A DNA stretch of 64,000 nt from the sequence record NC_103192.1; one strand, given 5' to 3'. Origin of the DNA: a phage. Of the stretch, positions 28,651 through 64,000 are shown one piece after another; positions within the stretch are counted from its first letter, which is position 1; every line of letters starts with the position of its first letter. Made by a program: the position numbers and the translations under genes. The notes below the pieces were generated by a model. That model saw only the letters and a program-made list of their open reading frames with translations. It had not been told where the DNA came from and did not search any database.

Positions 28651-29856
28651 ATGATTTTCATCTACGAACATTTCAAAACTCGTAAAGAAGCACGTGACCG
28701 CCGTGCAGAGCTTGAGAAGAAGGGTTTCACATGCGCTATTGAGAAAGGTAACACAACCTGGACACTGGCAGTGGGTGCCCCAGAGTTGTTCGATCCTGAC
28801 CGTGACAGCGTCTGCTACACCCGTGAGGATTTTGAAACCCGTGAAGAGGCCCGTTTATTTCGATATGGGCTGGAAGATAACGGTAAGTACGCCATGATCT
28901 TAGACTTAGGAGAAGGTTCCGTTAAACGTTGGGGCGTGGTATATCCGCTGTGTGTTGTTCACGGTGTAGGGTTCACTGGGGTAGCAATCAAGTCAGAAGA
29001 ACCTTTAGTAGAAGTAAAAGACCCGGTGCTGGAGGTGGTGAGCAGTGTGTCTCAGCAACAGACCCGAAGCATCGAGCCTTTGGTGGTTATTTGCGGAGAA
29101 CTCCTCCAGATCACCTGTAACGAAGGCATTTTTGAAATTCGCCGCAGTGAAAGTGAGGAAGTTTACCAGAAAGTTTTCGACCATATCTCTGTTCAGGAAT
29201 ATGATGAGGCAATTGGTGAAATCCTTGTCTGGCTGGAACGCAAGAATGAGTTCACCACACTTGCAGACAACCTGATCATGAAAGATGGCAAGCTCTACTA
29301 CTACGGTGTAGAGATGCGATCCACCATTGCAAAGAAAATTGAGAAAGATTATGCAGATGGAACACTGGATGACCGCTATGTGAAATTCCTCGTTCGCCTG
29401 CTACGCAATCCTTCTGCAAAATCTGTAAACATGCTCTACGATTTTATGCAGGCCAACGATATCCAGATTGCAGAAGATGGTCGAATCATTTGCTACAAAG
29501 GGGTTCAGTTTAACGGCAGCAAATGGGTGGATTGGCACAGTGGTAAAGTTCCACAATACCAGGGTGCTTTTGTATCCATGCCTCGTAACTTTGTAGAGGA
29601 TGATCCGGAAGCTGCGTGCTCCTATGGCTTACACTGCGCCAGCAAAGAGTATGCAAAGAGCTACGGCACTGTAATGATGGTTATGGTTGATCCTGCAGAT
29701 GTGGTTAGTGTGCCATACCAACACAATAGCGCTAAGTGCCGTGCATGCCGCTATGAGATTGTGGTAGCTCCGGAAGCACGCAAAGATGGAGACCCTATCG
29801 AATATGTAGTTGATCGTGACGGTAACACTATCGACATTCTTTACGAGGAGGCGTAA
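28651..29856 (+). CDS. rIIB: rIIB-like protein
   Basis: C-terminal half (YDFMQANDIQIAEDG...SYGLHCASKEYAKSYG...VDPADVVSVPYQHNSAKCRACRYEIVV) is collinear with the T4 rIIB C-terminal region as recalled. Confidence 0.75.
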   Translation: MIFIYEHFKTRKEARDRRAELEKKGFTCAIEKGNTTWTLAVGAPELFDPDRDSVCYTREDFETREEARLFRYGLEDNGKYAMILDLGEGSVKRWGVVYPLCVVHGVGFTGVAIKSEEPLVEVKDPVLEVVSSVSQQQTRSIEPLVVICGELLQITCNEGIFEIRRSESEEVYQKVFDHISVQEYDEAIGEILVWLERKNEFTTLADNLIMKDGKLYYYGVEMRSTIAKKIEKDYADGTLDDRYVKFLVRLLRNPSAKSVNMLYDFMQANDIQIAEDGRIICYKGVQFNGSKWVDWHSGKVPQYQGAFVSMPRNFVEDDPEAACSYGLHCASKEYAKSYGTVMMVMVDPADVVSVPYQHNSAKCRACRYEIVVAPEARKDGDPIEYVVDRDGNTIDILYEEA

Positions 29857-31226
29857 TGGAAAAAGGGCAGTATGATGTAGGCACAGATGCTGCCCTCGTT
29901 GCAATCATGAGTGGTGAGAATGTCTTCGTTTCAGGACCTGCAGGTTGTGGGAAGACGTATCTCATCAACATGATCCAGTCAATGTATGGAGACTCTTGCA
30001 TAACGGTTGCCCCGACAGGGGTAGCCGCTTTAAACGTTAATGGAGCAACAGCACACCGAACATTCGATCTTGCAGCAGGTGTGAGCATGGAGTCGGACTG
30101 GACCGCAATAAGGGCAAAAACAGCAAAGCCTTTGAAAAGCAAGGCATTTACCATCCTAATTATCGATGAAATCTCTATGATCCGTGCTGATAAGTTTATA
30201 GAGATGGATAGGAAACTCCGCTTCCTTCGAAAAAATGACAAACCTTTCGGAGGCATACAGGTCATATTGTTTGGCGATTTTTACCAGGCACCTCCTGTTG
30301 TCTCTTCTATGGAGAAGGAAGCCTACTTCAACTTCTACCATACGGACCTGTGTTGCTATACCGAATCTTGGAAAGAGCTTGACCTCCACAACATAGCCCT
30401 AGTAGATCAGTTCCGACAGGAGTCTATTCGATTTGCCACAATGCTCAACTGTGTTCGTGAGGGTCGTCGCATAAAAGAGGTTGTAGCAGAACTTAATGCT
30501 CGCTGTTACAAAGGCGGTGTACCAACAGACGCTCTCACAATTTGCGCTACCAACAAACAAGCGGAGGAAGTGAACAGAAGGTTCTATGATGCCATCAACG
30601 CCCCAGAGAAGGTATACACTGGTGAAATGAAAGGTAAGTTTCCCTCCACCCTGCCAGTTGAGCAGGAGATGAAGTTGAAAATTGGCATGAAGGTCATGAT
30701 AACCGCTAACGATGTTGACCCGACTCACAAAGTACCTTATTATGTTAACGGAACACGTGCCACAATTGTTAAATTTAAGAACAAGGCGGTGGTGGTAGAG
30801 CTTGAAGATGGAACACAGGTTGACATAGAGCAGAGGTTGTGGGAGAATAACGAGTATAAGCCATCTCAGAGATACAACATTGCAGAAAGGAAGATGGAGA
30901 AGTTTATAGAGAGGGTAGTGATTGGGTCATACAAGCAACTTCCTCTGAAATCTGGGTACGCCGTAACATCTCATAAAAGTCAAGGACTTACGCTAGATTG
31001 TTACAACCTAGACCTTGGAAAGAACGGGGCTTTCTCTCCTGGGATGACGTATGTTGCTTTGAGTCGAGTTAAGACAATACAAGGAATAAACTTGTTGCGT
31101 CCACTAAGAGAAGTTGACATTATTGTTGACCCGCGAGTCGTAGAGTTTTACAATACAACATTCCCTGACTTAGACAAAATTGTCAGGAAAGATTTTGAAA
31201 CCAGAACTGAAGAGGGGGACGTATGA
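29856..31226 (+). CDS. SF1B DNA helicase, Dda/RecD-like
   Basis: Walker A GPAGCGKT, Walker B IIDEISM, GDFYQAPPV, C-terminal TSHKSQGLTLD. Confidence 0.8.
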   Translation: MEKGQYDVGTDAALVAIMSGENVFVSGPAGCGKTYLINMIQSMYGDSCITVAPTGVAALNVNGATAHRTFDLAAGVSMESDWTAIRAKTAKPLKSKAFTILIIDEISMIRADKFIEMDRKLRFLRKNDKPFGGIQVILFGDFYQAPPVVSSMEKEAYFNFYHTDLCCYTESWKELDLHNIALVDQFRQESIRFATMLNCVREGRRIKEVVAELNARCYKGGVPTDALTICATNKQAEEVNRRFYDAINAPEKVYTGEMKGKFPSTLPVEQEMKLKIGMKVMITANDVDPTHKVPYYVNGTRATIVKFKNKAVVVELEDGTQVDIEQRLWENNEYKPSQRYNIAERKMEKFIERVVIGSYKQLPLKSGYAVTSHKSQGLTLDCYNLDLGKNGAFSPGMTYVALSRVKTIQGINLLRPLREVDIIVDPRVVEFYNTTFPDLDKIVRKDFETRTEEGDV

Positions 31227-31625: not shown

Positions 31626-32951
31626 ATGAGTAAAACCAAATTAGAACTTACCTGGATAGGTAAAAACGAGCGCAAAAAGTTAGAGCCGCACATTTTGTTA
31701 GAAGATTCTAGCAAGTCTTACCACAGCCAGAAAGTGACCGAAAACGATATTTTTGATAATAAACTGATTTTTGGAGATAACTTATTAGCATTGAAGGCGC
31801 TAGAGCAAGAGTATGCAGGCAAAGTGAAGTGTGTTTACATAGACCCACCATTCAATACTGGAAGGGCTTTTGAGCACTACGATGATAGCCTTGAGCATTC
31901 CATTTGGCTGGGCTTAATGAGGGATAGGTTAGAAATAATTCGTAATCTTCTAAGTGATGATGGGGTAATATTCGTTCACTTAGATGATTGCGAGATGGCG
32001 TATTTAAAAGTTTTGATGGACGAGATTTTTGGTCGTGCAAATCAGTTAAATACCATATCGATGACCACAAATTCCCCTTCGGGATTTAAGGCAACAGGAG
32101 CCACAGTTTTCTCCACAGCAAACTTTTTGCTAGTATATGCAAAAGATCGCACCCAGAAACCGCTTAACAAAATCTATATACCTAAAGGGTATGATACAGG
32201 ATATAACAAATACCTATTAAACCCGGATGACCATTATAAAAATTGGACGTGGTGCGGTATTGCCGATGCGTTTGCAAAGGCCAATGGCTATAAAGATGCA
32301 AAAGAAGCCAAGAAAAAACTGCCTGATACATTCGATGATGAATTAGCACAATTCGCAATTGATAATGCAGAACGTGTATTTCAATCTGTTGCAATTGGCG
32401 GTGGTGCTAAAATAAAGAGAAAAGAAACTATCGAGAAGTCAAAGAAAGACAGGGATAAGGTTTATGTACATCCAAATGAAGATGTTGAAGGATTTTATAT
32501 CGCAAATGGTAGGCAAATGGTCTTTTACTCCAACAGGCTTTTGGAAATTGACGGTGAGATGCAACCTGCGGAACTAATAACTGATGTTTGGACAGACATT
32601 AGTTGGAATGGGATAGCAAATGAAGGTGGCGTTAGTTTCAAAAATGGGAAAAAACCAGAAGCGCTTTTGAAGCGAATTTTCGAAATGTGTACGCGAGAAG
32701 GTGATTTGGTATTGGATTCATTCGGTGGTTCGGGAACTACTGCTGCTGTAGCTCACAAGATGAAAAGACGTTGGATCTCAATCGAGCTAGGTGATCATTG
32801 TCATACCCATATTATTCCGCGCTTGGAAAAAGTGATCGATGGTGAAGATCAAGGTGGTATTTCTAAGTCTGTAAACTGGCAAGGTGGTGGTGGCTTCCGT
32901 TATTACAAACTTGCCCCGACCTTAATTGCGAAAGATAAGTCTGACCAATAA
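31626..32951 (+). CDS. DNA N6-adenine (or N4-cytosine) methyltransferase, beta-class
   Basis: catalytic motif IV DPPF (VYIDPPFNTG) precedes AdoMet motif I DSFGGSGTTAAVA. Confidence 0.8.
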   Translation: MSKTKLELTWIGKNERKKLEPHILLEDSSKSYHSQKVTENDIFDNKLIFGDNLLALKALEQEYAGKVKCVYIDPPFNTGRAFEHYDDSLEHSIWLGLMRDRLEIIRNLLSDDGVIFVHLDDCEMAYLKVLMDEIFGRANQLNTISMTTNSPSGFKATGATVFSTANFLLVYAKDRTQKPLNKIYIPKGYDTGYNKYLLNPDDHYKNWTWCGIADAFAKANGYKDAKEAKKKLPDTFDDELAQFAIDNAERVFQSVAIGGGAKIKRKETIEKSKKDRDKVYVHPNEDVEGFYIANGRQMVFYSNRLLEIDGEMQPAELITDVWTDISWNGIANEGGVSFKNGKKPEALLKRIFEMCTREGDLVLDSFGGSGTTAAVAHKMKRRWISIELGDHCHTHIIPRLEKVIDGEDQGGISKSVNWQGGGGFRYYKLAPTLIAKDKSDQ

Positions 32952-34214: not shown

Positions 34215-34979
34215 TTGAAATTTATCTACAAAGAACACCACCACAAAGGTGTTGTGTGGAGTCTATTTGACGGGTCTGGTGGTGCAGTCATTGACTGGGC
34301 TAAAGCTGGGTATCTGTGCCTGTGCTTTAACGCAGAAGGTGCTGACCATGGTAGTTATGCAGAGGTGATAACCGATCATCCTAACATTCACTACGTTGAT
34401 TATTGGATTGACCCGTGGTTCCCTCAAGAAACTTTTTGCATGTACCCAGCTCCAGACTTTATTCTTGCATTTCCTCCGTGCACGCATTTAGCAGTATCAG
34501 GTGCTGCACATTTTAAGAAAAAGCTGGCTAAGGACCCTCTGATTCAAATTAATGCTGTAAAAGATGCTCGGGTTGCAGAAGAGTTGGGAGAGATTTACGA
34601 TTGCCCGTGGCATGTAGAGAACCCTGTAGGGGTTATGTCCACACTGTGGCGAAAACCTGATTACCGTTTTCATCCTTCTGATTATGGCGGGTATTTACCA
34701 GAAGATGATGTAAACCCGTGGTTTCCTGAATTTATAGCTCCACGTGATGCCTACCCAAAAATAACTTGCGGTTGGATAGGCAATGGATTTATAATCCCAG
34801 CCACAAAACCTGTCCCGCAAATAGTGGATGCGGTTAGTGGTTATTCTATGCAACACGCTAAGCTAGGTGGAAAGAGTGCAAGGACGAAGATGATTCGAAG
34901 CCTTACACCACGTGGCTGGGCAAGAGCTGTATTCTTAGCAAACGAGACTGTAGTAAGGAGCAGAATTAATGGGCAGTAA
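34215..34979 (+). CDS. DNA (cytosine-5)-methyltransferase-like protein
   Basis: motif I LFDGSGG, PC motif AFPPCTHLAVSG, ENV-like HVENPVG; TTG start 7 nt after AGGAGA, because the upstream in-frame GTG lies inside the terminator stem. Confidence 0.5.
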   Translation: MKFIYKEHHHKGVVWSLFDGSGGAVIDWAKAGYLCLCFNAEGADHGSYAEVITDHPNIHYVDYWIDPWFPQETFCMYPAPDFILAFPPCTHLAVSGAAHFKKKLAKDPLIQINAVKDARVAEELGEIYDCPWHVENPVGVMSTLWRKPDYRFHPSDYGGYLPEDDVNPWFPEFIAPRDAYPKITCGWIGNGFIIPATKPVPQIVDAVSGYSMQHAKLGGKSARTKMIRSLTPRGWARAVFLANETVVRSRINGQ

Positions 34980-37047
34980 ATTCATGGCATCTGCATATAA
35001 CCGCTATGGAGAGCCTAACCCAGTTGCAACAAGATACAAAAGCGGAGGCAGTATGAAACGAGACTATCGTGATGAAAAAGAGGTCGAAACTGTAGAAGCT
35101 GTTTTAGAAAATACTAAAATTGTCCCTGTTCCACAACAAAATATCGGACTGATGGCTGCACAATATTTTGGGGTGCGATCAGCATTGTCTCAAGAAGACG
35201 GGGTAACGGTCACTGCAACATATTTCCCATATTACGACCGCTACGGTAATCTATCCGGTTTCAAAAAGCGCGATTGGTCTAAGCCGAAAGAGCAGAAAGG
35301 GCACTGGTCTGTAGTAGGGATCGTGAAGGCCAGCTCCCAGATGTTCGGTCAAAAGCTGTGTGCATCCTCCAACAACCGTAAACAGATTAACGTTTGCGAG
35401 GGGGAGGGTGATGTTATTGCAGCATGGCAGGCTGCATATCAGATACAAGTAAAAGGGATTCTCACCAATGCTAAAGCCCCAGCGAAGGTGAAGCAGTGGG
35501 CTAAAGAAGTCCAGGATGGGATCGATGCAGTTATCAACGGCGGCGATCTGGCAGGAAAACCCTGCCTGCCTTTTGTTGGAATTAACTGCGGGTGTGCAAA
35601 CGCCGTAGACACTTTTGCGAACAATGAGAAATTTATCCGTAGCTACGGAACAGTGGTCCTTGCAATGGACAACGATGCAGCTAACGAGGTAGAGAAGCAA
35701 AAACACGTTATCAAAGGTGTTGAAGCCACACATAATATCGCAGCATTTTTGATGGCTGATAACGTTTACCACGTGGAATACCCAGGTGAGGTAAACGACC
35801 CTGATGGTGTAAAAGATATCCGTGACATGCTGAAGGCTAAAAAGCTGGAAGATATTGTCAACATGTTCCGTCACCCAGTCAAATATGTGCCTGATGCTGT
35901 ATCTGATTTAGAAGACTTCTCCATTGAATCTCTTCGTAAGAAGACTTCTAATGGCGTAGATATCAGTGCGGAGTTCCCTAAATTGCAGAAGATGCTGAAA
36001 GGACTCCACAAAGGCACCTTGATGATGCTGACAGGACCATCTGGTGGCGGTAAAACAACTGTAGCCAAGAAGCTGGAACACTGTATTGCAAGATACTTGA
36101 TGGATCCAACATGCCCTAAAGCTGATGATTATGAAGAGGATGATCGCCTGTGCCTGATTCACCTTGAAGAGGATCCAGAGGAAGCAATCAACTCTCTATA
36201 TGCTAACCAGTTAGGGTTTGATGTTAAAGAGTTTGTTGAAGACCCCAGTCAGTTCCTGACCGATCAGGAGCATGCTGAGATTCATCAATCTTGGGCCAAG
36301 GCCGGAAAAATCAAAGTGTTCAAACATTTCGGTTCTATCCCTGTAGATGAACTGATTACCAAGCTTAAACAAATGGTATGTCTGTATCATTGCCGTTACA
36401 TTGTGCTGGATCACCTGTCCATGGTGATTTCAGGGCTTAATGTTAAGGATGAGCGCAAAGAACTTGACATGGCTATGACTCAACTAGCCGCGTTCTGTAA
36501 GCAGTTTAATGTGTTTATCCTGGTGATTGCTCACCTGAAGCGCACAGAGATTGTACCTCCGAAGGATAAGGATGGAAATCCGTTACCTTTCTGGTACCCT
36601 GTACGAAAAGAGAACCTTCGCGGTAGTGCCGGATTGGAGCAACTTAGCTGGGTGGTTGTCGGGGTAGAGGCAGAGGAGATGGTGGATCGTTCCCGTGGAC
36701 GTGTCCGACTGGTAGGTCTTAAAAACCGCCCAGCAAAAACCTTAGGTATTGCAGACACTCTAGTTATGGATCCCCACACAGGCAAGTTCCATGATGCCAG
36801 CAACTGGTACTGGGACAAAGAAATGCAGATGTTTACAGACGGGGAAGGTGGGGAGGTTGTTTGGAGACCTCAGGCTATGTTTGAGGATCAGGAGCATGCA
36901 GTTGTAGAAACACCTGTGGGCAAGGTTGTGGCTGATAAGGTTATAACTCCTGCTGTTAACCCTGTTGACACACAGGAAGATCTTCAGTACGATGATCCAT
37001 CCTCTGACCCGGTCCCTGGTTTTGAGGATGATGAAACGCCTTTTTAA
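34969..37047 (+). CDS. bifunctional primase-helicase (Toprim + DnaB-like)
   Basis: Toprim-like CEGEGD, Walker A GPSGGGKTT, DnaB-type VLDHLSMV. Confidence 0.8.
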   Translation: MGSKFMASAYNRYGEPNPVATRYKSGGSMKRDYRDEKEVETVEAVLENTKIVPVPQQNIGLMAAQYFGVRSALSQEDGVTVTATYFPYYDRYGNLSGFKKRDWSKPKEQKGHWSVVGIVKASSQMFGQKLCASSNNRKQINVCEGEGDVIAAWQAAYQIQVKGILTNAKAPAKVKQWAKEVQDGIDAVINGGDLAGKPCLPFVGINCGCANAVDTFANNEKFIRSYGTVVLAMDNDAANEVEKQKHVIKGVEATHNIAAFLMADNVYHVEYPGEVNDPDGVKDIRDMLKAKKLEDIVNMFRHPVKYVPDAVSDLEDFSIESLRKKTSNGVDISAEFPKLQKMLKGLHKGTLMMLTGPSGGGKTTVAKKLEHCIARYLMDPTCPKADDYEEDDRLCLIHLEEDPEEAINSLYANQLGFDVKEFVEDPSQFLTDQEHAEIHQSWAKAGKIKVFKHFGSIPVDELITKLKQMVCLYHCRYIVLDHLSMVISGLNVKDERKELDMAMTQLAAFCKQFNVFILVIAHLKRTEIVPPKDKDGNPLPFWYPVRKENLRGSAGLEQLSWVVVGVEAEEMVDRSRGRVRLVGLKNRPAKTLGIADTLVMDPHTGKFHDASNWYWDKEMQMFTDGEGGEVVWRPQAMFEDQEHAVVETPVGKVVADKVITPAVNPVDTQEDLQYDDPSSDPVPGFEDDETPF

Positions 37048-37105: not shown

Positions 37106-40100
37106 ATGAGCATGTATAGCTTCGATTTTGAGGCCTCCGGGCTTTTGGAAGATCCAGATCTTTATTATCACTGCGGCCTGTTTAAAGAGCTGAATAAGAA
37201 CCGTTTTATGCTGTTCCTCCCTCTAAATGACCGCACACACTACTCCGAGGAGGATATAGAGAAGGCTAAGAACTTTATTCTGGCAAAGAAAACTCTTTAT
37301 AAAGATTTTGAAGTTCGCATAGCAGATTTTTCAGAGTTGGAAGGTTGGCTTACAGGCAATTCTGACTGGTCACCAACAGCTTTGAACTGCCATAACTGCT
37401 ACAGTTATGACTTTATGCTGATGGAGAGATTATCCGGTATTCATTTTGATATGTTCCGTGATCCTAAATGCATGGGTACTATCAACGATCACCAGGTTAA
37501 CCTGTTTGATACGTTGGCGATGAGCCGAATCTTGTGGCCTGATCGCCCTTTACCAAAAGGTTGCCCGGACGCTGTATTCAACCCGGTTACTAAGAAAATG
37601 CAGCCTGTTGGTCCTCACGGCCTTATGGCATGGGGCTACGCTCTTGGTAACCAGAAAGTTCAAATTGATGACTGGCGCGATCTTCCGCTGTGGAAGTATG
37701 TGGATCGTGTATTTGAGGACGTTATCATCCAGGAGCTGCTCTGGAAAGAGCTAGTAGCGGAATCAAAAGGTGTATTCTACGGCAAATCTGACATGCAGAA
37801 CTTCATGTATGACCCTGCCAAAGAGAAGCCTAAAGGATTCAAGAAGATTACCTGGAAGAATGCATTACGCCGAGGCATGCTGCAGCACTTCCTGATGGAG
37901 CTGCAGGCCCGTCAGGGTGTGTATTTCGACATAGATGGGGCTATTGCTTTACGTGACCGTTGCGATGCGTGGATGAAAGAGATCGCTGATCGTGTTGAAC
38001 CTCAACTCCCTTTAAAAGAGTTGTCAATATCTCAGCGGCCCAAGTTCCCTGAAAAGCCGTTTAACCAAGATGGGACAATCTCCAATAATGGTTGGAAATG
38101 GTTAAAAGATAAGCTTGGCTACCCTGTGGACATGAGCGCTTTAGATTTCAAAGCCCCACCTAAGCGAGCATTTACCTCCACAGGAGATGTCAGTAAGATG
38201 GGGATAAAATGGTGTGAAGAGATGGGCTGCAAAGACCCCGATAAGATGGCTGCTTTCTTGAGAGGCTATATTAAGGGCACTTCCACACCACAACCTTTAC
38301 CTAAAGAGCTGATGGATCAGGCAATAAGTGATCTACAGCAGAAGCGAATGCCTGACTGCAAGATACCTATGAAAATCAGCAATCAGGACGACATTAAGCG
38401 ATACCTGATCAGTGCTGGTTGGCTTCCGACAATGTGGAGAACTAAGGATGTAACTAAAGACAGCAAGAAGAAAGCTCTACCTGATGCAGATGTTGATGCA
38501 CGAGTATATGCATATATGGACGAGCTTTTAGAGTCAGAGTATTGTGACCTAATTATCAACTTCTGGAACAAAACTGATGCTAAGTTTCAGACAACAGTGC
38601 ACAAGTTCCGAAGCTTTCCTAACTCCGAAAGGATTAAAAAGGAAGTATTCGGGAAAATACGCAGAAAAGCTAGGGCACTTATTACTTCCCCGCAACTGAA
38701 AGATACGTTTGGACACCTATGCCCGAATCTTGAAAGATTGAACGGAGAGATGGCTAAAGATATCGTCTTGTGGTTATCATTGCGAAACCGCAGATCGGTA
38801 CTTGATCCAATCAAGGAGGATAAGGTTGATACTGGTCTTCTTAATCACCCACGTTTGAAGATTGACCATAAGCTTCCTGCTAAAAGCTCTGGATTAACAA
38901 ACACTTCCCGACAGAAACACAGTATTTGTGCAAACATGCCTAAACCATCTCCTAAAGTGGTTATGGGTAAAGAGATGCGTAGTCTGTGGGGTGTTCCTCC
39001 AGGATACTTTGAGATCGGTATTGACGGGTCTAACTTGGAGCAGCTTATCGGGGCTTGGGGTGCCTTTGAGTTCGACAACGGCCTGTATTACGATGTTGTA
39101 AGTAACGGCGATGCACACTGTTATTCAGGAGATACACAAATTCTCACGGAGAAAGGGTGGGTGAGGTTTGAAGATCTTGATCCGGGAACACAAGTGTTCC
39201 AGTACGATCACAACACCTCGTCGATGAACCTTGTTACTCCATTAAATTACGTTAAGCGTAGTTATTGTGGGGATATGTATCATTTCCACAACAGCGGTGT
39301 GGATTTTATGGTTACAGATCAACACAGGATGCTGACCGTGGATCACAGAAGCAATAAATTGTTTGAAGATTTGGCAAAAGACCTGAAAGCAGGTAAAGGG
39401 TCTAATTCAGGAAGAAGGTTTATCCATGCGGCAGAGTTTTATGGGAATACAACCTTATCTCCTGCCCAGGTTAATTTGCTTATTGCTATTCACGATGATG
39501 GGCACTTGCATACAAATAAGGACGGCAGCATCGTGTGCAGGATTCAGGTCGGGAAGGGCAGAAAAGTTGCAACGCTTTTAGATACTTTTTCTGCTCTAAG
39601 CCTTAGTTATGTAGAGCAGAGCGGGAAAACCACAAAAGGGGGCTTACTGGCGAGAAGGTTCCAATTCCACGTTCCGTCCTGGGTATTTGAGTTTTTGGAC
39701 AGCAATAAGGATTTCACCTACAACCTGATGGACCTTGATAAAGAATCTAAAAACCTGTTTATAGCTTCTTTATCTAACTGGGACGGGTGGGTATCTTCCG
39801 AAGGTGGAAAAGTTGCCTACTACTCTCAGGCCGAGTGCAGGAAGAAATCTGTAGAGGTTGTGTCTGCGCTGGCTACTCAGTGTGGTTTACGGAATAATAC
39901 GGTAGCGATTCACAAAAAAGGTCGTTCCGTACAGCACAGAATCACGATTGGTAGCAAACAGAGAGCAGGGTTGCTGACACTATCTAAAGAGTCTGTCGAG
40001 GTGAGCGGTTCTTTGGTTTATTGCGTTACCGTCCCTTCTGGAGCAATCATTGTGAGAAGGAATGGTAAAGTGGCAGTGTGCGGTAACTGTAATAACGCCA

Positions 40101-41180
40101 AAGCTTACTCTTCTGTAGCAGGCAAGGAGATTTCCCGTAACGATGGTAAGCCTGTCACGTACGGTGTTATGTACGGGGCACAAAAAGATAAAGTTGCAGA
40201 TATGCTGGACATCTCTCCAGAGTTGGGACAAAGGGTAATCGATGCGCTTTGGGATGCCAACCCCGGTCTTAAGGGGCGTAAAGAGGATCTGGAGAAATTC
40301 TGGGAAGCAACTGGTAAGAAGTTTATCTACTCTTTTGATGGTCATGCCATCTGGACCCGATCTAAACACTCTTTACTTAATGCATACCAACAAAATGGTG
40401 GTGCATCGTTGTGTGACTTAGTTGGGATACTCATGCACCACCAAATGGTGAAGCGTGGGTGGTACGATGAAGGTGTTCGCCGTATTATCTATTACCATAA
40501 ATAACATTGTGGCTTCGTGCAGTGATGCACGTCGAAAACCTCTTTAATTGACGGGAAGGCTAAGTTGACTTTTACACCTAAACATGGTAAAAGCTCGATA
40601 TGCTAATCCGCAGCGAAGCATCCGAGAGGATGAACGTTCAGAGACTATCGAAAGCATAGCTCCAGCATAGTTTGGTGTGAAGAAGCGAGTAGAGTAGGCC
40701 AGCAAGTGCGGTCGAAATGAGAGGTGCCTTGGTAACAAGGCAGTGAGATAGTCCGATCCATACGGGAAACTGTATGGCTATGCACGTAATGGTGCGGGGT
40801 AGCTTAACGACCTACCTGAACTATTGGATGAGTACCAACTTCAAGTACCTGACACACCGAAGTATAAGACTGTGTACACCTTCGACACAATCGAAGAACT
40901 GGAAGCATTTAAGGCAGAGCAGGAGGCCAAACTTCATGTGTTCGACGGTCATAAGTACAAAAAGGCACGCAAGGATGAGGACGGAAACGAAGTGGTTGAC
41001 AGAGACGGAAACACGGTGTACGATCCTATCCTGAACGATGACGGAAAGCTTGAACTTATCTGGAGCCCTGTGGGTGAAATGGTGGTGCATTGCTTCTGGC
41101 AAGCTTCTAAAATGATGGGCGTCCCATTCCAGATCACAGGTGAATACTTGTGTGGGGCTAATTGGGGTAGTTGTCACTAA
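37106..41180 (+). CDS. family A DNA polymerase, exons 37106-40498 and 40827-41180, containing an intein
   Basis: N-terminal exo motif FDFEASGL; motif A IDGSNLEQL; KPVTYGVMYGAQ (motif B region); HDE motif split across the intron (YYH | DEYQL); C-terminus GANWGSCH. Confidence 0.85.
39119..40087 (+). mobile_element. intein (323 aa) with LAGLIDADG-like homing endonuclease domain
   Basis: begins CYSGDTQILTEKGW (block A), block B TDQH, LAGLIDADG-like LLIAIHDDGHL and LFIASLSNWDGW, ends ...VCGN followed by Cys +1; extein flanks GDAH/CNNAK fit the family A pol O-helix region. Confidence 0.7.
40499..40826 (+). ncRNA. group I self-splicing intron (ORF-less)
   Basis: core elements P aattgacgggaagg (40546-40559), Q aatccgcagc (40605-40614), R gttcagagacta (40636-40647), S agatagtcc (40746-40754); 5' exon ends in U, intron ends in G; restores the HDE motif in frame. 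Confidence 0.8.
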
Positions 41181-49435: not shown

Positions 49436-49761
49436 CAGAGATCATCGTTTCAACTGCAGGGTATGTATTCCTGACAATCATTGCACTGACTATTTTGGTG
49501 ACAGTGTATGGGTTTGTTATCCTTCCTATCCTTGAGACATTTAGTTTGTGTCGGTGTTGGAGAAAAGCTTACGGTCCACAACCATGGAAGGACTGGCCCC
49601 ACCTGGTGCGCTTAGCGTTCTCTTATGCTTACGATCACTCCAGCAGTGCATGCATAACCGGATACCACGCCCACAACTGGAGCTGGGAAGGGTTGAGGAA
49701 ATGGAATGTTACAAAGACCATACCTCTGCGCATGTACAAACCTAAAAACAAAGACAGCTGA
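49432..49761 (+). CDS. hypothetical membrane protein
   Basis: N-terminal hydrophobic stretch VFLTIIALTILVTVYGFVILPIL. Confidence 0.5.
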   Translation: MTEIIVSTAGYVFLTIIALTILVTVYGFVILPILETFSLCRCWRKAYGPQPWKDWPHLVRLAFSYAYDHSSSACITGYHAHNWSWEGLRKWNVTKTIPLRMYKPKNKDS

Positions 49762-49799
49762 TACTTGAAAATTCCTGGCATATCAAGTATAAGGGGGAT

Positions 49800-50265
49800 T
49801 TCTAAAATGGATTTCCTCCTTTTGATATTTCACCAGGCTGGATATTTTAAAATCCTTAGAAAATCAGAAAATGGATCGAAAACTAAAATGGATTTTTTCA
49901 AGACAGGCACGATAAGCTGCGCTGCTCATTCTATCATTCGCACCGTACTTCAAATCACAGTTCCAGATTTTCCACACACACTCTCGCCCATCTAACAGGA
50001 CTTTCCCAACTTACCTTCGACCTTTTATGACAATAAGTTAATTATTATCAGTAAGTTTTGATACATCTCTCTCAGTACTCGATCTGTTTTTCATTTCAAA
50101 GATTGGATTTTCTGAAAATTTTTCTCGATAAATTTCTCAGTACTCGATCTGTTTTTCGTTTTCTGAATTGGATTTTCTGGAAATCGTTCCAGCTCTCGAC
50201 CTGAAATTTTTGGGGACGAAATCGATTTTTCGTTTTCAGAAATGGATTTTTAAAATTTCTATATG
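49800..50265. repeat. iteron-like AT-rich repeat array
   Basis: about 6 copies of (a)aatggattt(t); three imperfect tandem copies of a ~65-bp unit from 50071 containing ctcagtactcgatctgtttttc and ttggattttctg(a/g)aaat. Confidence 0.6.
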
Positions 50266-50365
50266 GGAATATTTTAGTGGATACTATTTTATAGGAAATT
50301 GTTACGGAGGGTAATTAGCATGCTAACTAAATTTATTAAATGCGAAAAGTTCTCATTTAGAATTT

Positions 50366-50690
50366 TGAATGATAATCATTCTCGTTTGCAGAATAACGGG
50401 CACCCCCGGTGATTGTCTCCCGGCCCCTGTTGCCCCGGCTTGTTATTATAGTATCACACAGGACAAAGAAAGCAAAGACTTTTTGCATAAATTTTTAAAT
50501 GATAATGATAACCGTTCTCATTTTATGCAGCGCCCATCCCCGGTGGTTGTCTCCCCCGTCACCGGTGCCTGCCGTCCTTTCGATAGGTATATTGTGCCAC
50601 CTGGCGGGGCCGCTGTCAACACTTTTCAAAAAAAAAAAATTCTAACCTGATGCGCTAACCGTTGCAACCTGGCGGGGCCAGCCTGGCAGG
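50366..50690. repeat. GC-rich repeat family (copies A1, A2 plus acctggcgggg motifs)
   Basis: aatgataat...gttctc...cccccggtg(a/g)ttgtctccc repeated at about 50366 and 50495; acctggcgggg at 50598, 50667, 50863; inverted copy at 59727-59767. Confidence 0.5.
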
Positions 50691-50986
50691 TCCGCGCTAT
50701 AAAGTAAGCAGCTACAGAAGAGGTACAAAAATGAAAAGTAATATAATCCCCTGGAAAATGTAGCGATCAATGCCGCTGAAGTTATCGCCCTGGTTGAAAA
50801 GGCTATGGCGGGAGCGTTGGAACATAAAGAAGAGTACGAAAAAATGGTGGTTAACCTGGCGGGGGGCGGCAGGTGGATTCTATCATAAAAATAATTTAAA
50901 ATAGTCGTTGACAACAAGGTTAATCATGGTATTATTACCCTACAAGGTGAACAACACCACACTAATTAACAGAGAGGATAAAAATC

Positions 50987-59726: not shown

Positions 59727-59767
59727 ACGGCAGGCACCTGGCGACGGGGGGAGACAATCACCGGGCC
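59727..59767. repeat. inverted copy (A3) of the GC-rich repeat seen at 50533-50576
   Basis: cggcaggcacctggcgacggggggagacaatcaccgggcctgcc is approximately the reverse complement of ccccggtggttgtctcccccgtcaccggtgcctgccg. Confidence 0.5.
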
Positions 59768-59879
59768 TGCCTGTCATATAAGAACTATAAAAACCGTTGA
59801 CATCTGCCATGGGGTGGGGTAACATTTATCTTGAAGGGGCAAAAGTGCCCACACAACAACCAGGAGAGAGGAAAACATT

Positions 59880-60152
59880 ATGTCAAGCTGGATTAATCAA
59901 GAAGTCGAATCACGTTTTAACGCTATTTGGGATCTCATCGAAAAAGAAGACGGAACATCAAGCCCCTACCTCAACAATTTGGAATTCCATTTTGTGGAAG
60001 CGATGAACGCAGAACATGATCACGAAGGTGGTGCGGATGAGTTCGCTAAAGGTTATGGCTTCAACAGCGCCAACGAAATGATCGAGGCGGTTGTACTCCA
60101 GGCTGAGGAAGATTATCAATTAAAAACGCTTGAATTTTGCCGCCGTAAGTAA
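59880..60152 (+). CDS. hypothetical protein
   Basis: 90-aa ORF after AGGAGAGAGGAAAA. Confidence 0.5.
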   Translation: MSSWINQEVESRFNAIWDLIEKEDGTSSPYLNNLEFHFVEAMNAEHDHEGGADEFAKGYGFNSANEMIEAVVLQAEEDYQLKTLEFCRRK

Positions 60153-61038: not shown

Positions 61039-61057
61039 TTTCTTAACTGAATTATCA

Positions 61058-61083
61058 AGGGGCTTAAAGGCCCCTTTCTTTTT
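61058..61083 (+). terminator. intrinsic terminator closing the small-gene module
   Basis: aggggcttaaaggcccct followed by ttcttttt. Confidence 0.65.
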
Positions 61084-61099
61084 GTCTGCTCTTCTCCTA

Positions 61100-63600
61100 C
61101 CATAAACGGCCCCACCCGGCAAGTGGAATAATTGACTAGCCAGCAATTGCCTGCACTGTACAAACATACAGGTAAAATAGTTATTGCATAACCTTTCATT
61201 GTGTGGTAGCAGTGCCATTTTTACACGTTTTTCCTTCCAAAATTGCACGTAATGCCGCTATTGCATAAATTTTAACCTGATGCATATCTTCAATATCTTG
61301 TCAACAACTAAAAATCTTTATAAGTCATACACTTACACCACCACAAAAGCGTGTTCTACGTGAAAAATCGGGTGTAACTATAGCCGCCAGATCTCAGAAT
61401 TTACGTACGCTCACCAGTCTATAGCCTGCTAAGTATTTATTCCAACCATAGAATAACGGAATAGTCAATACCTGCATAAAATAATTATTCGTGTAAACTG
61501 CATAACATAAATCAGCCAGGGTGTCAACATTTTTCGTAAACATCTCGAAATTATCACGATGAGTTATCATAAACAGAGAAATCTTTAGTCGTCTAATGTT
61601 TACTGTACATTACTATACTGGCTGGAATCATTAGATGACTAAGAGAAAGATAAGAAATAGTTAACAATGTAATTGTTTTACCTGTAACAATAAGGCAACT
61701 ATGCAAACGAATGGCATGGCGCGACGGAGTCGCGACATAATATAAAAGCAGTAACCATCACCCCCGTGATAGTTTGTCTGCAAACTATTAATCAGATCAT
61801 AGTTGCCTTGTAGTTAGTTAATCATGACACAATAAGCAAGGCAACTATAGATCTGCTAATAGTTGCCCTGCTTTTATATTATGTCATAGAAACACCCGAA
61901 GGGGTGACCGAAGGTCACCTGGCCTAGCCAGTGAAAGATTATTAACTTGTTAATTGTTAACTTGCTAATTGTTTTCATGCAAACGAATGTCATGGCTTAT
62001 CATATCTGCGTGAACAGTGAAACATGGAAATGATAAATATGTGAACAGTTATCCATGTAAACTATTAGACATGCAAACAATCAGGTGTGCAAAAGTGACA
62101 TAGTATGTCACCAGTATGTCATAGTATGTCAGACAAGTTTTTCTCCTCTTTGTCAAGTGCTGCATGGAAAATTTACAAACTGGTATGGTAGCATTTTTGC
62201 GGCCCTGTTTACATTCAGGAGTGTATGTATAATCCTTGTTGTGTGGGCGTTTAGACGTCTGGACGGTCAGAAGTCCGCAGGTTAATATCTAATCTATTGG
62301 TTGCTAACTATATCCCACACAAATAGTAAGAAATATAATTGTTATATGCGTAAACAGTAACTCATGTTATCAATCCATGTATGGATCGCCAGTGGTGCGC
62401 ATAATGGGTATTATGTTAAATTGCCCGTAATGATAACCATTCCCACAATGATAGGTATTCTCATTCACCCCCACAAGATAGGTTGCAAATGTTGTGCCAC
62501 TGTGTGAACGGCCTCACCTATTAATTTGCCCCACTGCCTCGATATTTGAGAATTGTTATAAGAATGAGAAGTATTCCCATTCCGTCCGCCTGGCAGCACT
62601 CCAGTCGCTAACGCTCTCGGGCTGAGAGCTATGCTCGATGCTACCGGCTCCTGACAGGGAGGCACTCCTGTAGGACAGGTCAAAATCGGGGCATAACTGG
62701 ACCCCCCTTCAGATATTTCTGGCTGACTCTTCAGGTCTGTGTGGGAAAAGCCAACCTCTCCGGCAGAGGGGAGGGGGTCAATTAAAAAATTTACGTGGTG
62801 TATGAAGCGCTCTTCAGGCAAGGTGTGTATTATGGGAGGAATCACTCTTCAGGTGATGATATTTGTGGGTGTGATATTTGCTGGAAAGCCAGATATGACG
62901 GGACTCCCGGCGGGGCAGGGGTAGTACAGACAGGGAAAATGTGGAGAATGTGGTGGGTAAATTGATCAGGCAGGTAGAGTATGAAATATGTTACAGGTAT
63001 GTTAAATATGGAGGGTGAATATCTGTAAGATTTGTGTGTAAAATCAAAGACTTAAGTGGTGTTGTGGTATTTTCTATAAATAATTCAAGTTTAATAGGTA
63101 ATATTTGTCTCTATCCACTTTGTGTGGTAACCAGATTCAGATGAAATTGGTTTACAAGTGTATACATAATATACAAATTAAAGATACAAGAAACCCCCCT
63201 CCCCCTTCGGCTACCATTCACCTTTTCCTCTGACTGGTACTTAAACACTTATTCAGACTCTTCAGGTTATCACCCATATATCATATGGCAGTGACTGGTG
63301 TCCTCCGGCCCCTCTTTCGTCACCCGTCCGCTTCGCCATGCTAATGCCATAGCCAAAGGTTCGGTTGTTCACCCTGTTCACTCAGGTGTATCTCCATACC
63401 CCTTCAAACCGAAGAGAACAGAAAACCCGAATTACTCGGTAAAAGAAAAGAGAAGAACTTAATTTTATCAGGATAGGCAAGAATGTCAAGGCATGACTGC
63501 TCACTAAACAAGCAAACAGTCATGTGTGGGAGGTAAGTGATTGTGGTGGTAGGAAATTTAGTTGAAAGATGTGTTATAGGTGCTTCCAGCACTTTAGCCG
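61100..63600. repeat. 2.5-kb non-coding, repeat-dense region
   Basis: no convincing ORF; ggcaactat/atagttgcc x4 in alternating orientation (61691-61879); 18-bp inverted repeat gacataatataaaagcag / ctgcttttatattatgtc; agtatgtca x3 (62098-62135); ctcttcagg x4; attgcataa x3. Confidence 0.5.
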
Positions 63601-63616
63601 GGCAGCTAATTGTGTG

Positions 63617-63832
63617 TCAGTCCAGCGGTTCATCTACTACTTCACTGAAATCAATGTTCAGAGTCTCTTCCCAACCATCGATCTCAGCACAAGAGTGGAG
63701 TTCTTTAGGGTTTACTCCCAAAGCCTCAGCAACAGAGTCTATATTTAACACCTCTGGCAGGTATGATTCATCGAATTCAAGGTAAATCAGGCCACGAGTG
63801 TTGTCAGCTCCACCAAATATTTCTATCTTCAT
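63617..63832 (-). CDS. hypothetical acidic protein
   Basis: 71-aa ORF with AGAGGAG 5 nt upstream of ATG on the minus strand. Confidence 0.5.
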   Translation of the reverse strand: MKIEIFGGADNTRGLIYLEFDESYLPEVLNIDSVAEALGVNPKELHSCAEIDGWEETLNIDFSEVVDEPLD

Positions 63833-64000
63833 AAAATCTCCTCTGGAAATGAGAGTGTGAACAGGGTTATACGTTCCAATGCACTGGAATTTATATACGT
63901 TTGCCTCTTCAGGCCATGCTTTAGCATGATAAACTTGTGTGGGCTCGGTACTTCATAGTCTGCCACCTCTGAACTCTTCGTTCTCAGGCATGATAGAGAA

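Follow-up and report, generated by a model that had tools for sequence, protein, structure and literature searches.

A conserved three-unit repeat array in a non-coding gap of a Vequintavirus genome: a probable protein-binding control site, perhaps a replication origin

What is the function of a tandem repeat array that lies, in phage sequence NC_103192.1, within a gap of about 970 bp (49762-50730) that is poor in open reading frames (ORFs) and sits among co-directional small genes? Coordinates refer to the 64,000-nucleotide stretch of that record analysed here (the window, 64 kb), which is identified by its sequence as Vequintavirus, a virulent Escherichia coli phage of the rV5/FV3 type; megablast of 49700-50800 matched 121 phage records, nearly all of them Escherichia phages of Vequintavirus, with a top match at 92.8% identity. 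A preliminary description of the locus had pointed to iteron-like repeats at the boundary of the replication genes. Our analysis suggests that the array is probably a protein-binding control site and perhaps a replication origin. It has the marks of a unique, ancient and geometry-constrained predicted protein-binding site, tied to a predicted iron-responsive transcription unit.

The tandem array itself is real. A repeat search returned a 55-nt pair (50070-50124 and 50135-50189) whose members are 65 bp apart and 84% identical, and a 47-nt family whose third copy (50204-50250, 77%) follows after another 74 bp; when the gap was compared with the 64-kb window by self-BLAST, the offset alignment had E = 4.8e-15. 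Tandem Repeats Finder did not call the array. Searching the 64 kb by nhmmer with a unit profile of 41 conserved columns, made from the aligned units of five genera, yielded exactly three sites, all on the + strand and with E values of 1e-7 to 1e-6, while the next-best match (E = 0.5) also falls inside the gap. The three sites are:

50075-50113, + strand: unit 1 core (nhmmer E = 1.4e-7), with box A GTACTCGATCTG, T-tract TTTTTCATTTC and box B TTGGATTTTC
50140-50178, + strand: unit 2 core (nhmmer E = 1.3e-7), 65 bp after unit 1
50214-50251, + strand: unit 3 core (nhmmer E = 1.4e-6), 74 bp after unit 2

The register proposed in the preliminary description, with a third copy at 50196-50265 continuing a 65-bp period, does not survive, since the third core begins at 50214 and the spacings are 65 and then 74 bp. 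Similarly, ctcagtactcgatctgtttttc and ttggattttctgRaaat, given there as common to all units, are features of units 1 and 2 and not of unit 3. In the latter, box A is degenerate (GGGGACGAAATCGA), the left box reads GACGAAATCGA where TACTCGATCTG is expected, and box B is AAATGGATTTT; its within-genus identity (here and below, mean pairwise identity in an alignment of eleven Vequintavirus genomes) is 0.97. The unit 1 core is followed by an A/T tract and then by TCGATAAATT at 50124-50133, which we take to be the exact published high-affinity H-NS nucleation motif; it lies between units 1 and 2, and TCGAAAAAATTTTT occupies the equivalent place in other genera. Sigma-70 promoters within the units were considered and rejected, as neither inspection by eye nor a scan gave an acceptable -35/-10 pair on either strand.

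Is the array conserved? The preliminary description had suggested looking for related phages in which the repeats are absent or unconserved. Instead, the array is 92-99% identical in all 116 of 116 Vequintavirus records, and the eleven-genome alignment contains no indels inside it. Within-genus identity is 0.90-0.97 in the units and 0.96-0.98 in the Fur-box/hairpin modules described below, compared with 0.73 in the spacer to the left of the units and 0.85-0.89 in flanking coding DNA. The array thus appears to be under strong purifying selection and is more conserved than the flanking genes. Unannotated gaps of about 1 kb are found at a similar position among small + strand genes in BIS47 (Mydovirus, host Klebsiella), CR8 (Certrevirus, host Cronobacter), SSE121 (Seunavirus, host Salmonella), Hena1 (Henunavirus, host Erwinia) and relatives in IMG/VR. 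Each of those gaps, in these four further genera of Vequintavirinae, holds three units in one orientation, and the genes flanking the gap differ between genera. The typical unit consists of box A, (G)G-K-W-CTCGATCG (ACTYGAR in Hena1), a T-tract of the form TTTTTC..TTTC, box B, CGTATTYT or TGGATTTT, and usually an A6T5 tract, GAAAAAATTTTTC. Spacings from unit 1 to unit 2 and from unit 2 to unit 3 are:

Vequintavirus: 65 and 74 bp
Mydovirus: 74 and 67 bp
Seunavirus: 75-76 and 67 bp
Certrevirus: 78 and 63 bp
Henunavirus: 76 and 69 bp

The distance from unit 1 to unit 3 is therefore 139-145 bp throughout, while the middle unit moves. The units of Seunavirus and Mydovirus are orthologous by position, which indicates that the triplication is ancient. 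In phi92, a member of Stephanstirmvirinae, three units are again present at spacings of 67 and 75 bp, and their sequence is unrelated (ATTTAAAGTTTTT...TTTTGAAAATGAAAAGTTCAA). Because the array is conserved in all Vequintavirus records and its layout recurs elsewhere, we regard it as a functional cis-element. A number and span that stay constant while the sequence varies by lineage point to a nucleoprotein complex, in which the binding protein would have co-evolved with its sites. A lineage known from IMG/VR, about 70% identical in the array, carries four to five extra repeats of AACTATTAATCACCGTGCGTTACTATTTT, spaced by about 40 bp, between the three-unit array and the Fur box (in two such relatives, L022 2560-2745 and L025 860-1000, local locus numbering). 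A similar sequence, AACTATTAATCA, is found at 61783 and 61843 in the large non-coding region of the window. A scan of bacterial genomes for three spaced CTCGATCG motifs, aimed at satellites or plasmids that might have borrowed the array, produced, among the matches listed, the noise of GC-rich genomes and was uninformative either way.

To the left of the units the gap contains a second group of motifs, separated from them by a variable spacer:

49799-49898, + strand: left AAATGGATTT cluster, with exact copies at 49805-49814 and 49886-49895 and the near copy AAATGGATCG at 49868-49877
49901-50069: variable spacer between the motif clusters, C-rich and G-poor, 41% invariant columns

Exact copies of AAATGGATTT number only three in 64 kb, all of them in the gap (49805, 49886 and 50240); near copies read from the sequence have one mismatch (50166, 50219) or two (49868, 50101). 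The earlier count of "about six" copies is therefore correct when mismatches are allowed and too high for exact copies. With up to one mismatch the whole window contains 14 copies against a shuffle mean of 9.3, which is no excess, and the signal is one of clustering rather than number. The left cluster is nearly invariant in the genus (identity 0.94), and Seunavirus, Mydovirus and Henunavirus have related AAATGG(A/T)TTT clusters at the corresponding place. The spacer has a GC skew of -0.25 to -0.39 and holds a single DnaA-like box, TTTTCCACA (49968-49976).

Does the array act as DNA or as RNA? Its folding energy does not differ from that of dinucleotide shuffles (z = -0.04 for the + strand and +0.17 for the - strand), and this lack of excess RNA structure suggests that it acts as double-stranded DNA. 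We infer that a sequence-specific protein or complex binds the three units as double-stranded DNA and that the units, with the left AAATGGATTT cluster, would constitute a unique cis-acting site.

The region to the right of the array (50330-50700) was passed over in the preliminary description, which omitted what we consider the most informative neighbours of the array: the Fur boxes, the conserved promoter-like sites on both strands and the conserved GC hairpin. The predicted elements from the edge of unit 3 rightwards, with one distant copy, are:

50241-50340: least stable 100 bp of the 64 kb by nearest-neighbour stability, directly right of unit 3
50365-50383, + strand: Fur box 1, matching 15 of 19 positions of the 19-bp consensus GATAATGATAATCATTATC
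50365-50370 (TTGAAT) and 50389-50394 (CAGAAT), + strand: promoter-like hexamers around Fur box 1, 18 nt apart, assigned by eye
50398-50438: GC-rich hairpin 1, with the invariant motif CGGTGATTGTCTCC (GGAGACAATCACCG on the - strand), from repeats, alignment and fold
50448-50456, - strand: extended -10-like TGaTACTAT, read by eye and from the alignment consensus, unlisted by the promoter scan
50501-50519: Fur box 2, GATAATGATAACCGTTCTC, matching 16 of 19 positions of the 19-bp consensus
50533-50577: GC-rich hairpin 2, second copy of the GAGACAAYCACCG hairpin
50591-50619, - strand: sigma-70-like promoter TTGACA-17-(TG)CACAAT, 10 of 12 matches, aimed at hairpin 2, the Fur boxes and the array
50639-50667, - strand: second sigma-70-like promoter, TTGCAA-17-TAGAAT, 9 of 12 matches
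59727-59777, + strand: third GAGACAATCACCG hairpin copy, in opposite genomic orientation; 39 nt at 89.7% identity to 50539-50575, reverse strand

The segment adjoining unit 3 ranks first for low nearest-neighbour stability at both 60-bp and 100-bp windows (segments starting at 50241-50245), and it resembles a DNA-unwinding element. Beyond it, Fur box 1 includes a 7-1-7 motif, TGATAATCATTCTCG at 50370-50384, with one mismatch to TGAKAATNATTMTCA (the 7-1-7 Fur consensus motif used was TGATAATnATTATCA). Sequences within two mismatches of TGAKAATNATTMTCA occur 10 times in the window against 1.4 expected, a number reached by 0 of 100 shuffles. The TTGAAT-18-CAGAAT layout is kept across genera with its spacer filled by Fur box 1, and CAGAAT could alternatively be an extra Fur hexamer. 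A second promoter-like pair, TTGCAT (50483-50488) followed after 17 nt by TGATAA, overlaps Fur box 2. Fur box and hairpin together form two modules of about 135 bp, of which the second contains Fur box 2, and the GC hairpin in each bears the invariant motif CGGTGRTTGTCTCC. In phage AlexBoehm a clean 134-bp deletion, corresponding to 50413-50546 of the window, lies between the GC hairpins and fuses them, removing one Fur-box module; the duplicated module thus appears to be dispensable and recombination-prone. Other genera have one to five Fur boxes, often 29 bp apart and typically a perfect palindrome, TGAGAATCATTCTCA, with the last box between TTGAAT and CAGAAT (examples in local locus numbering: L002 2450-2557, L033 1411-1521, L005 1898-2030). 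As a bare string, apart from its context there, TGAGAATCATTCTCA also occurs in two papers on iron and on the regulation of TonB-dependent receptors in other proteobacteria. The predicted Fur boxes are near-consensus matches in virulent phages of two subfamilies. Elsewhere in the window, at 62431-62579, four Fur-box-like 7-1-7 motifs (TGATAACCATTCCCA, TGATAGGTATTCTCA, TGAGAATTGTTATAA and TGAGAAGTATTCCCA) form two pairs, with 18 bp within pairs and 116 bp between them.

Of the three copies of the GAGACAAYCACCG hairpin in the window, two are on the - strand in this gap and the third is on the + strand at 59.7 kb; read in the sense of transcription, every copy follows closely on a promoter-like site, which for the 59.7-kb copy is TTGCAA-16-TATACT. 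Since the 59.7-kb copy is inverted, + strand RNA from 50.4-50.6 kb would be an almost perfect antisense of about 45 nt to the leader of the gene at 59880; the predicted duplexes of such RNAs with that leader have energies of -68 and -80 kcal/mol. The extended -10-like element lies just upstream of hairpin 1 in the - sense, and other genera have TTGCAA-17-TATATT. The predicted - strand promoters are conserved within the genus and have near-consensus counterparts, assigned by eye, in SSE121, CR8, BIS47 and phi92. The number of promoter-like sites in the region shows no excess over shuffles (6 versus 5.7). The + strand has a GC skew of -0.16 at 50400-50600, so that a transcript in the - sense would be G-rich; G-rich transcripts favour R-loops, as at the ColE1 and mitochondrial origins.

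Outside Vequintavirus, a conserved segment of about 210 nt lies downstream of the predicted Fur-box promoter; it is found in 357 phage records from Seunavirus, Mydovirus, Certrevirus, Henunavirus and Stephanstirmvirinae, is almost never annotated, and is absent from the window (in local locus numbering: L006 2026-2239, L005 2026-2237, L004 2059-2271, L033 1523-1743). It ends in a long hairpin, with U.G and G.U pairs that are valid on the + strand only, and then a U/C-rich tail. A near-consensus promoter on the opposite strand converges on it, and it corresponds to no Rfam family. This segment looks like a Fur-repressed small RNA.

How might these elements work together? The reading that we favour, with less than even confidence, is that the site is a phage replication origin that is activated by transcription and gated by iron through Fur. 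Initiating from the - strand promoters that are conserved (50619->50591, plus the extended -10 near 50456), host RNA polymerase would read leftward across the G-rich hairpin leader and the Fur boxes to reach the easily melted 50241-50340 beside the protein-loaded array. Opening of the DNA there, or an RNA-DNA hybrid, could let the DnaB-like primase-helicase of the phage load, and Fe-Fur on its boxes might block or modulate leftward transcription, repress the opposing + strand promoter, or both. Each step is predicted, from protein binding and the identity of the binder, through transcription from the promoters and Fur occupancy, to the link with replication. Several observations favour an origin. 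There is a single unique cis-site, with three profile sites in 64 kb and one orientation; the repeats are lineage-specific and have a fixed geometry; the array shows strong purifying selection and no excess RNA structure; melt-prone DNA adjoins unit 3; conserved sigma-70-like promoters to the right face the array and would give a G-rich transcript; and among the phage's own genes are those for a DnaB-like primase-helicase, a PIF1 helicase and a DNA polymerase. The authors of the rV5 genome paper sought an origin by skew analysis and found none (PMC3606486). Our own literature search found no published description of the array region, Fur boxes or origin for rV5-like, PVP-SE1-like or phi92-like phages, and no known replication origin or master control region for rV5-like and phi92-like phages.

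A number of findings weigh against an origin. The cores are about 38 bp long and spaced by 63-78 bp with no constant helical phase, unlike phased iterons of 17-22 bp. No initiator gene adjoins the array: neighbouring ORFs have no known function, and the flanking genes differ between genera. A conserved neighbouring gene for a DNA-binding or initiator protein was rejected, as the candidates seen in other genera, a small - strand WQGGTVHQV ORF (phi92, phiTE, anhysbys) and an upstream protein of about 280 aa (Certrevirus, Seunavirus, Mydovirus), have no homologue in the window. The replication genes are 9-20 kb away, 13 kb in the case of the primase-helicase gene. No conserved DnaA box is present, the sole TTTTCCACA being substituted in close relatives, and no conserved IHF site turned up in the region, where no systematic IHF scan was made. 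GC skew does not switch here and follows gene orientation, which removes it as evidence for an origin. The low-stability segment is unconserved in Seunavirus and Certrevirus and is short or GC-containing in SSE121 and CR8, where the Fur boxes closely follow the array. In addition, a larger, repeat-rich non-coding region at 61-64 kb competes as a candidate origin of equal plausibility, and the invariable linkage of array, Fur boxes and promoter would fit a purely transcriptional control region equally well. From the earlier claim of an origin or a regulatory array, the shortlist stands, whereas "classic signature" of an origin was an overstatement in view of unit size and spacing, initiator, DnaA box, skew and the rival at 61-64 kb. 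That rival region (61040-64000) has more than 3 kb without convincing ORFs, is rich in direct and inverted repeats, and several of its segments are among the least stable in the window. It includes an 18-bp perfect inverted repeat (61734-61751 with 61868-61885) and three copies of CATAGTATGT at 62099-62131. It is probably the unlabelled "non-coding" box of the rV5 paper.

A transcriptional control array is almost as likely as an origin, and is doubtful in its own right. The units and the AAATGGATTT cluster would then bind a phage or host regulator or an architectural protein, setting the Fur-controlled promoters or small RNAs, and would have no role in replication. In every lineage the array lies directly upstream of one to five Fur boxes and TTGAAT-18-CAGAAT, and the strongest support comes from phi92, in which this linkage is kept despite wholly replaced unit sequence. 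The downstream candidate RNA of about 210 nt in the non-Vequintavirus genera, with its + strand-specific hairpin and U/C-rich tail, argues in the same direction, and the A/T tracts (GAAAAAATTTTTC) in each unit, together with the presumed H-NS motif TCGATAAATT, suggest bent DNA or binding of a nucleoid protein. However, the distance from the units to the predicted + strand start site downstream, 150-330 bp, is long for activation of a sigma-70 promoter, and reading the sequence by eye, with no pattern search made, revealed no promoter of the sigma-54 type. The unit motif is found nowhere else in 64 kb, whereas operators of phage regulators usually occur at several promoters, and regulation of this kind leaves the constant span of 139-145 bp unexplained. 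Control of transcription and of replication might also be combined. The gap of about 1 kb would then be an iron-sensing hub (Vequintavirinae and Stephanstirmvirinae, more than 350 genomes) in which Fur gates transcription into or out of the array of about 140 bp, coupling the start of replication or a developmental switch to iron. As part of that hub, Fur-repressed + strand RNAs of about 45 nt would act as antisense RNAs on GAGACAAYCACCG leader hairpins, on the opposing transcript in cis and on the 59.7-kb mRNA leader in trans. We consider this combination unlikely as a whole.

Another kind of unique cis-site, which we rate as rather improbable, would account for the one copy per genome: a pac site for the small terminase, a wrapping site for a topoisomerase or gyrase, a partition-like site, or a decoy for a host defence or silencing protein. 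Gyrase wraps a length of DNA similar to that of the whole array, about 140 bp and one further unit, and GATC-containing boxes with bent A/T tracts recall the pac sites of P1 and SPP1. This phage group packages by headful and has circularly permuted genomes (PMC3475682), and a 137.6-kb E. coli "plasmid" record, CP057073.1, is such a phage genome. GATC is not enriched, with 2 sites in the array, and is missing from box A of Hena1, so that a Dam/GATC cluster was rejected as neither enriched nor universal across genera. A pac site would also lie among small genes without known function, probably in the early region, with no terminase gene nearby (the position of the terminase itself was not looked up), and the share of GenBank records starting near the region is, by our own estimate, about that expected by chance. 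No partition genes were seen. The least probable alternative, and a very unlikely one, is a role at the RNA level, as a mimic of a type III antitoxin, an RNA anti-CRISPR (clustered regularly interspaced short palindromic repeats) or mini-array, a protein sponge, or the 3' domain of a leftward non-coding RNA of about 500 nt. Within-genus conservation is uniformly high over 50070-50600, including between the cores, and falls abruptly at 50070, the pattern that a transcript end would leave; - strand promoters are aimed into the array; and the period of 63-78 nt resembles the geometry of a CRISPR repeat plus spacer. To our knowledge the units bear no resemblance by eye to the type I-E or I-F CRISPR repeats of E. 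coli. They are merely 65-85% alike, the inter-unit "spacers" are fixed and conserved, unlike those of CRISPR arrays, and the lengths of these spacers differ between genera; a CRISPR mini-array or repeat mimic was rejected on this basis. A structured RNA is disfavoured by z-scores close to zero on both strands and by short dyads inside units that shift position between units and are poor or lacking in units 1 and 2 of the window, and a known RNA family by the absence of Rfam matches in the window at 48.5-52 kb and in four other-genus loci. At a different genomic position, an RNA repeat decoy is present in the related phage phiTE (PMC3475682). However, this pseudo-ToxI is at 106.7 kb and the homologous locus at 38.9-39.8 kb, and with no sequence match and no ToxI repeat in any compared locus an antitoxin mimic was likewise rejected.

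Where does the gap lie with respect to the genes of the phage? The + strand carries all genes from about 22 kb to 61 kb, among them:

29856-31226, + strand: PIF1 helicase
31626-32951, + strand: DNA methylase
34969-37047, + strand: DnaB-like primase-helicase
37106-40504, + strand: DNA polymerase

About 9 kb of small genes without known function separate the end of the polymerase gene from the gap, and small genes of this kind lie on both flanks. With the replication genes well upstream, the placement of the array at the boundary of the replication module is true only loosely. The gap is AT-rich, as described earlier (66-68% versus 56% in the whole window), and also non-coding: called ORFs, such as a 93-aa ORF at 50369-50650 and BIS47_205 across the array, vary from genome to genome and are broken in other genera, and a protein-coding gap was rejected. 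A 30-codon ORF that runs through Fur box 1 starts with the ATG at 50320, and a strong Shine-Dalgarno-like GGAGGG precedes this codon by 8 nt (50306-50412). The GGAGGG is weakened in FV3-type relatives and the ORF is missing from other genera; it is probably not a gene. The first small gene past the gap (50731-50763) is 177 nt long in FV3 and has 10 codons here through a 1-nt indel relative to its relatives, and it may be variable or not real. In the 1132-aa DNA polymerase ORF, polymerase profiles match both ends and residues ~664-1000 match unrelated profiles (PhoH-like, ribonucleotide reductase), which suggests an intein or other inserted domain in its middle part. A host or plasmid source of the array region was rejected, with no match in 5,426 E. 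coli genomes and a phage genome as the sole "plasmid" match. That record, CP057073.1 (137,565 bp, E. coli from cattle faeces, filed as a non-mobilizable plasmid), aligns with 96% of the 49780-50720 query at 89.6% identity and is evidently a Vequintavirus genome, in a carrier state or as contamination.

These readings differ in what they would mean. Phages of the rV5-like and phi92-like types are widely used in phage therapy and biocontrol collections, and the array offers a precise, conserved, single-copy target in them. As an origin it would be of an unusual kind, with three sites of about 40 bp over about 140 bp and no short phased iterons. Coupling to Fur, if true, would mean that a strictly lytic phage reads the iron status of its host directly, which bears on performance in the iron-limited gut and in infected tissue. 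As a regulatory array, it would place beside it a Fur-controlled RNA (more than 350 genomes) representing a new family of phage-encoded iron-responsive RNA.

Known systems each share part of this arrangement. Like the iteron origins (lambda ori, P1 oriR, SPP1 oriL, P4 ori/crr), the array has direct repeats of the same orientation in a non-coding AT-rich stretch, in the window a predicted easily melted segment adjoining, a site unique in the genome, and a repeat sequence that varies by lineage while the architecture is kept. In contrast to those origins, whose iterons of 17-22 bp are set one or two helical turns apart, it always has exactly three cores, of about 38 bp and 63-78 bp apart; the repeats lie neither within nor beside an initiator gene, and no DnaA box is conserved. 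The P1-type pac site consists of methylation-sensitive GATC hexamer clusters in or near the small terminase gene, unlike the two unenriched GATC sites of the array. The pseudo-ToxI of the Pectobacterium phage phiTE, which belongs to the same subfamily, is likewise non-coding and made of tandem repeats, and differs in its location and in its 36-nt head-to-tail units, which fold as pseudoknots; more generally, ToxI-type repeats are structured and about 34-40 nt long, whereas the array has periods of 63-78 nt, variable spacers, fold z-scores near zero and no ToxI similarity. Transcription-activated origins (T4 oriF and oriG, the T7 primary origin, ColE1 RNA II, lambda ori from pR) resemble the locus in having host-type promoters, here predicted, aimed at an AT-rich segment of low stability, a transcript that is G-rich near its start, and, for the phage, its own helicase-primase. 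They have no three-unit array or Fur boxes, and at this locus the promoters are on both strands and transcripts and R-loops are predicted only. As in the Fur-repressed promoters and small RNAs of enterobacteria (ryhB, the iucA promoter), the predicted boxes match 15-16 of 19 positions, or are perfect 7-1-7 TGAGAATCATTCTCA in other genera, lie between -35- and -10-like hexamers, are often in tandem 29 bp apart, and in most genera precede a candidate RNA of about 210 nt with a terminator-like hairpin. Unlike them, the boxes are encoded by virulent phages, have no similarity in the 5,426 E. coli genomes and belong to no Rfam family, and Vequintavirus has a duplicated Fur-box-plus-hairpin module in place of a long RNA. 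Overall, the array would appear to work most like an iteron array or an origin enhancer, yet it fails to match in three features that define iteron origins: repeat size and phase, adjacent initiator and host-factor sites. What sets it apart is a conserved three-site geometry, together with its predicted coupling to host Fur boxes in strictly virulent phages.

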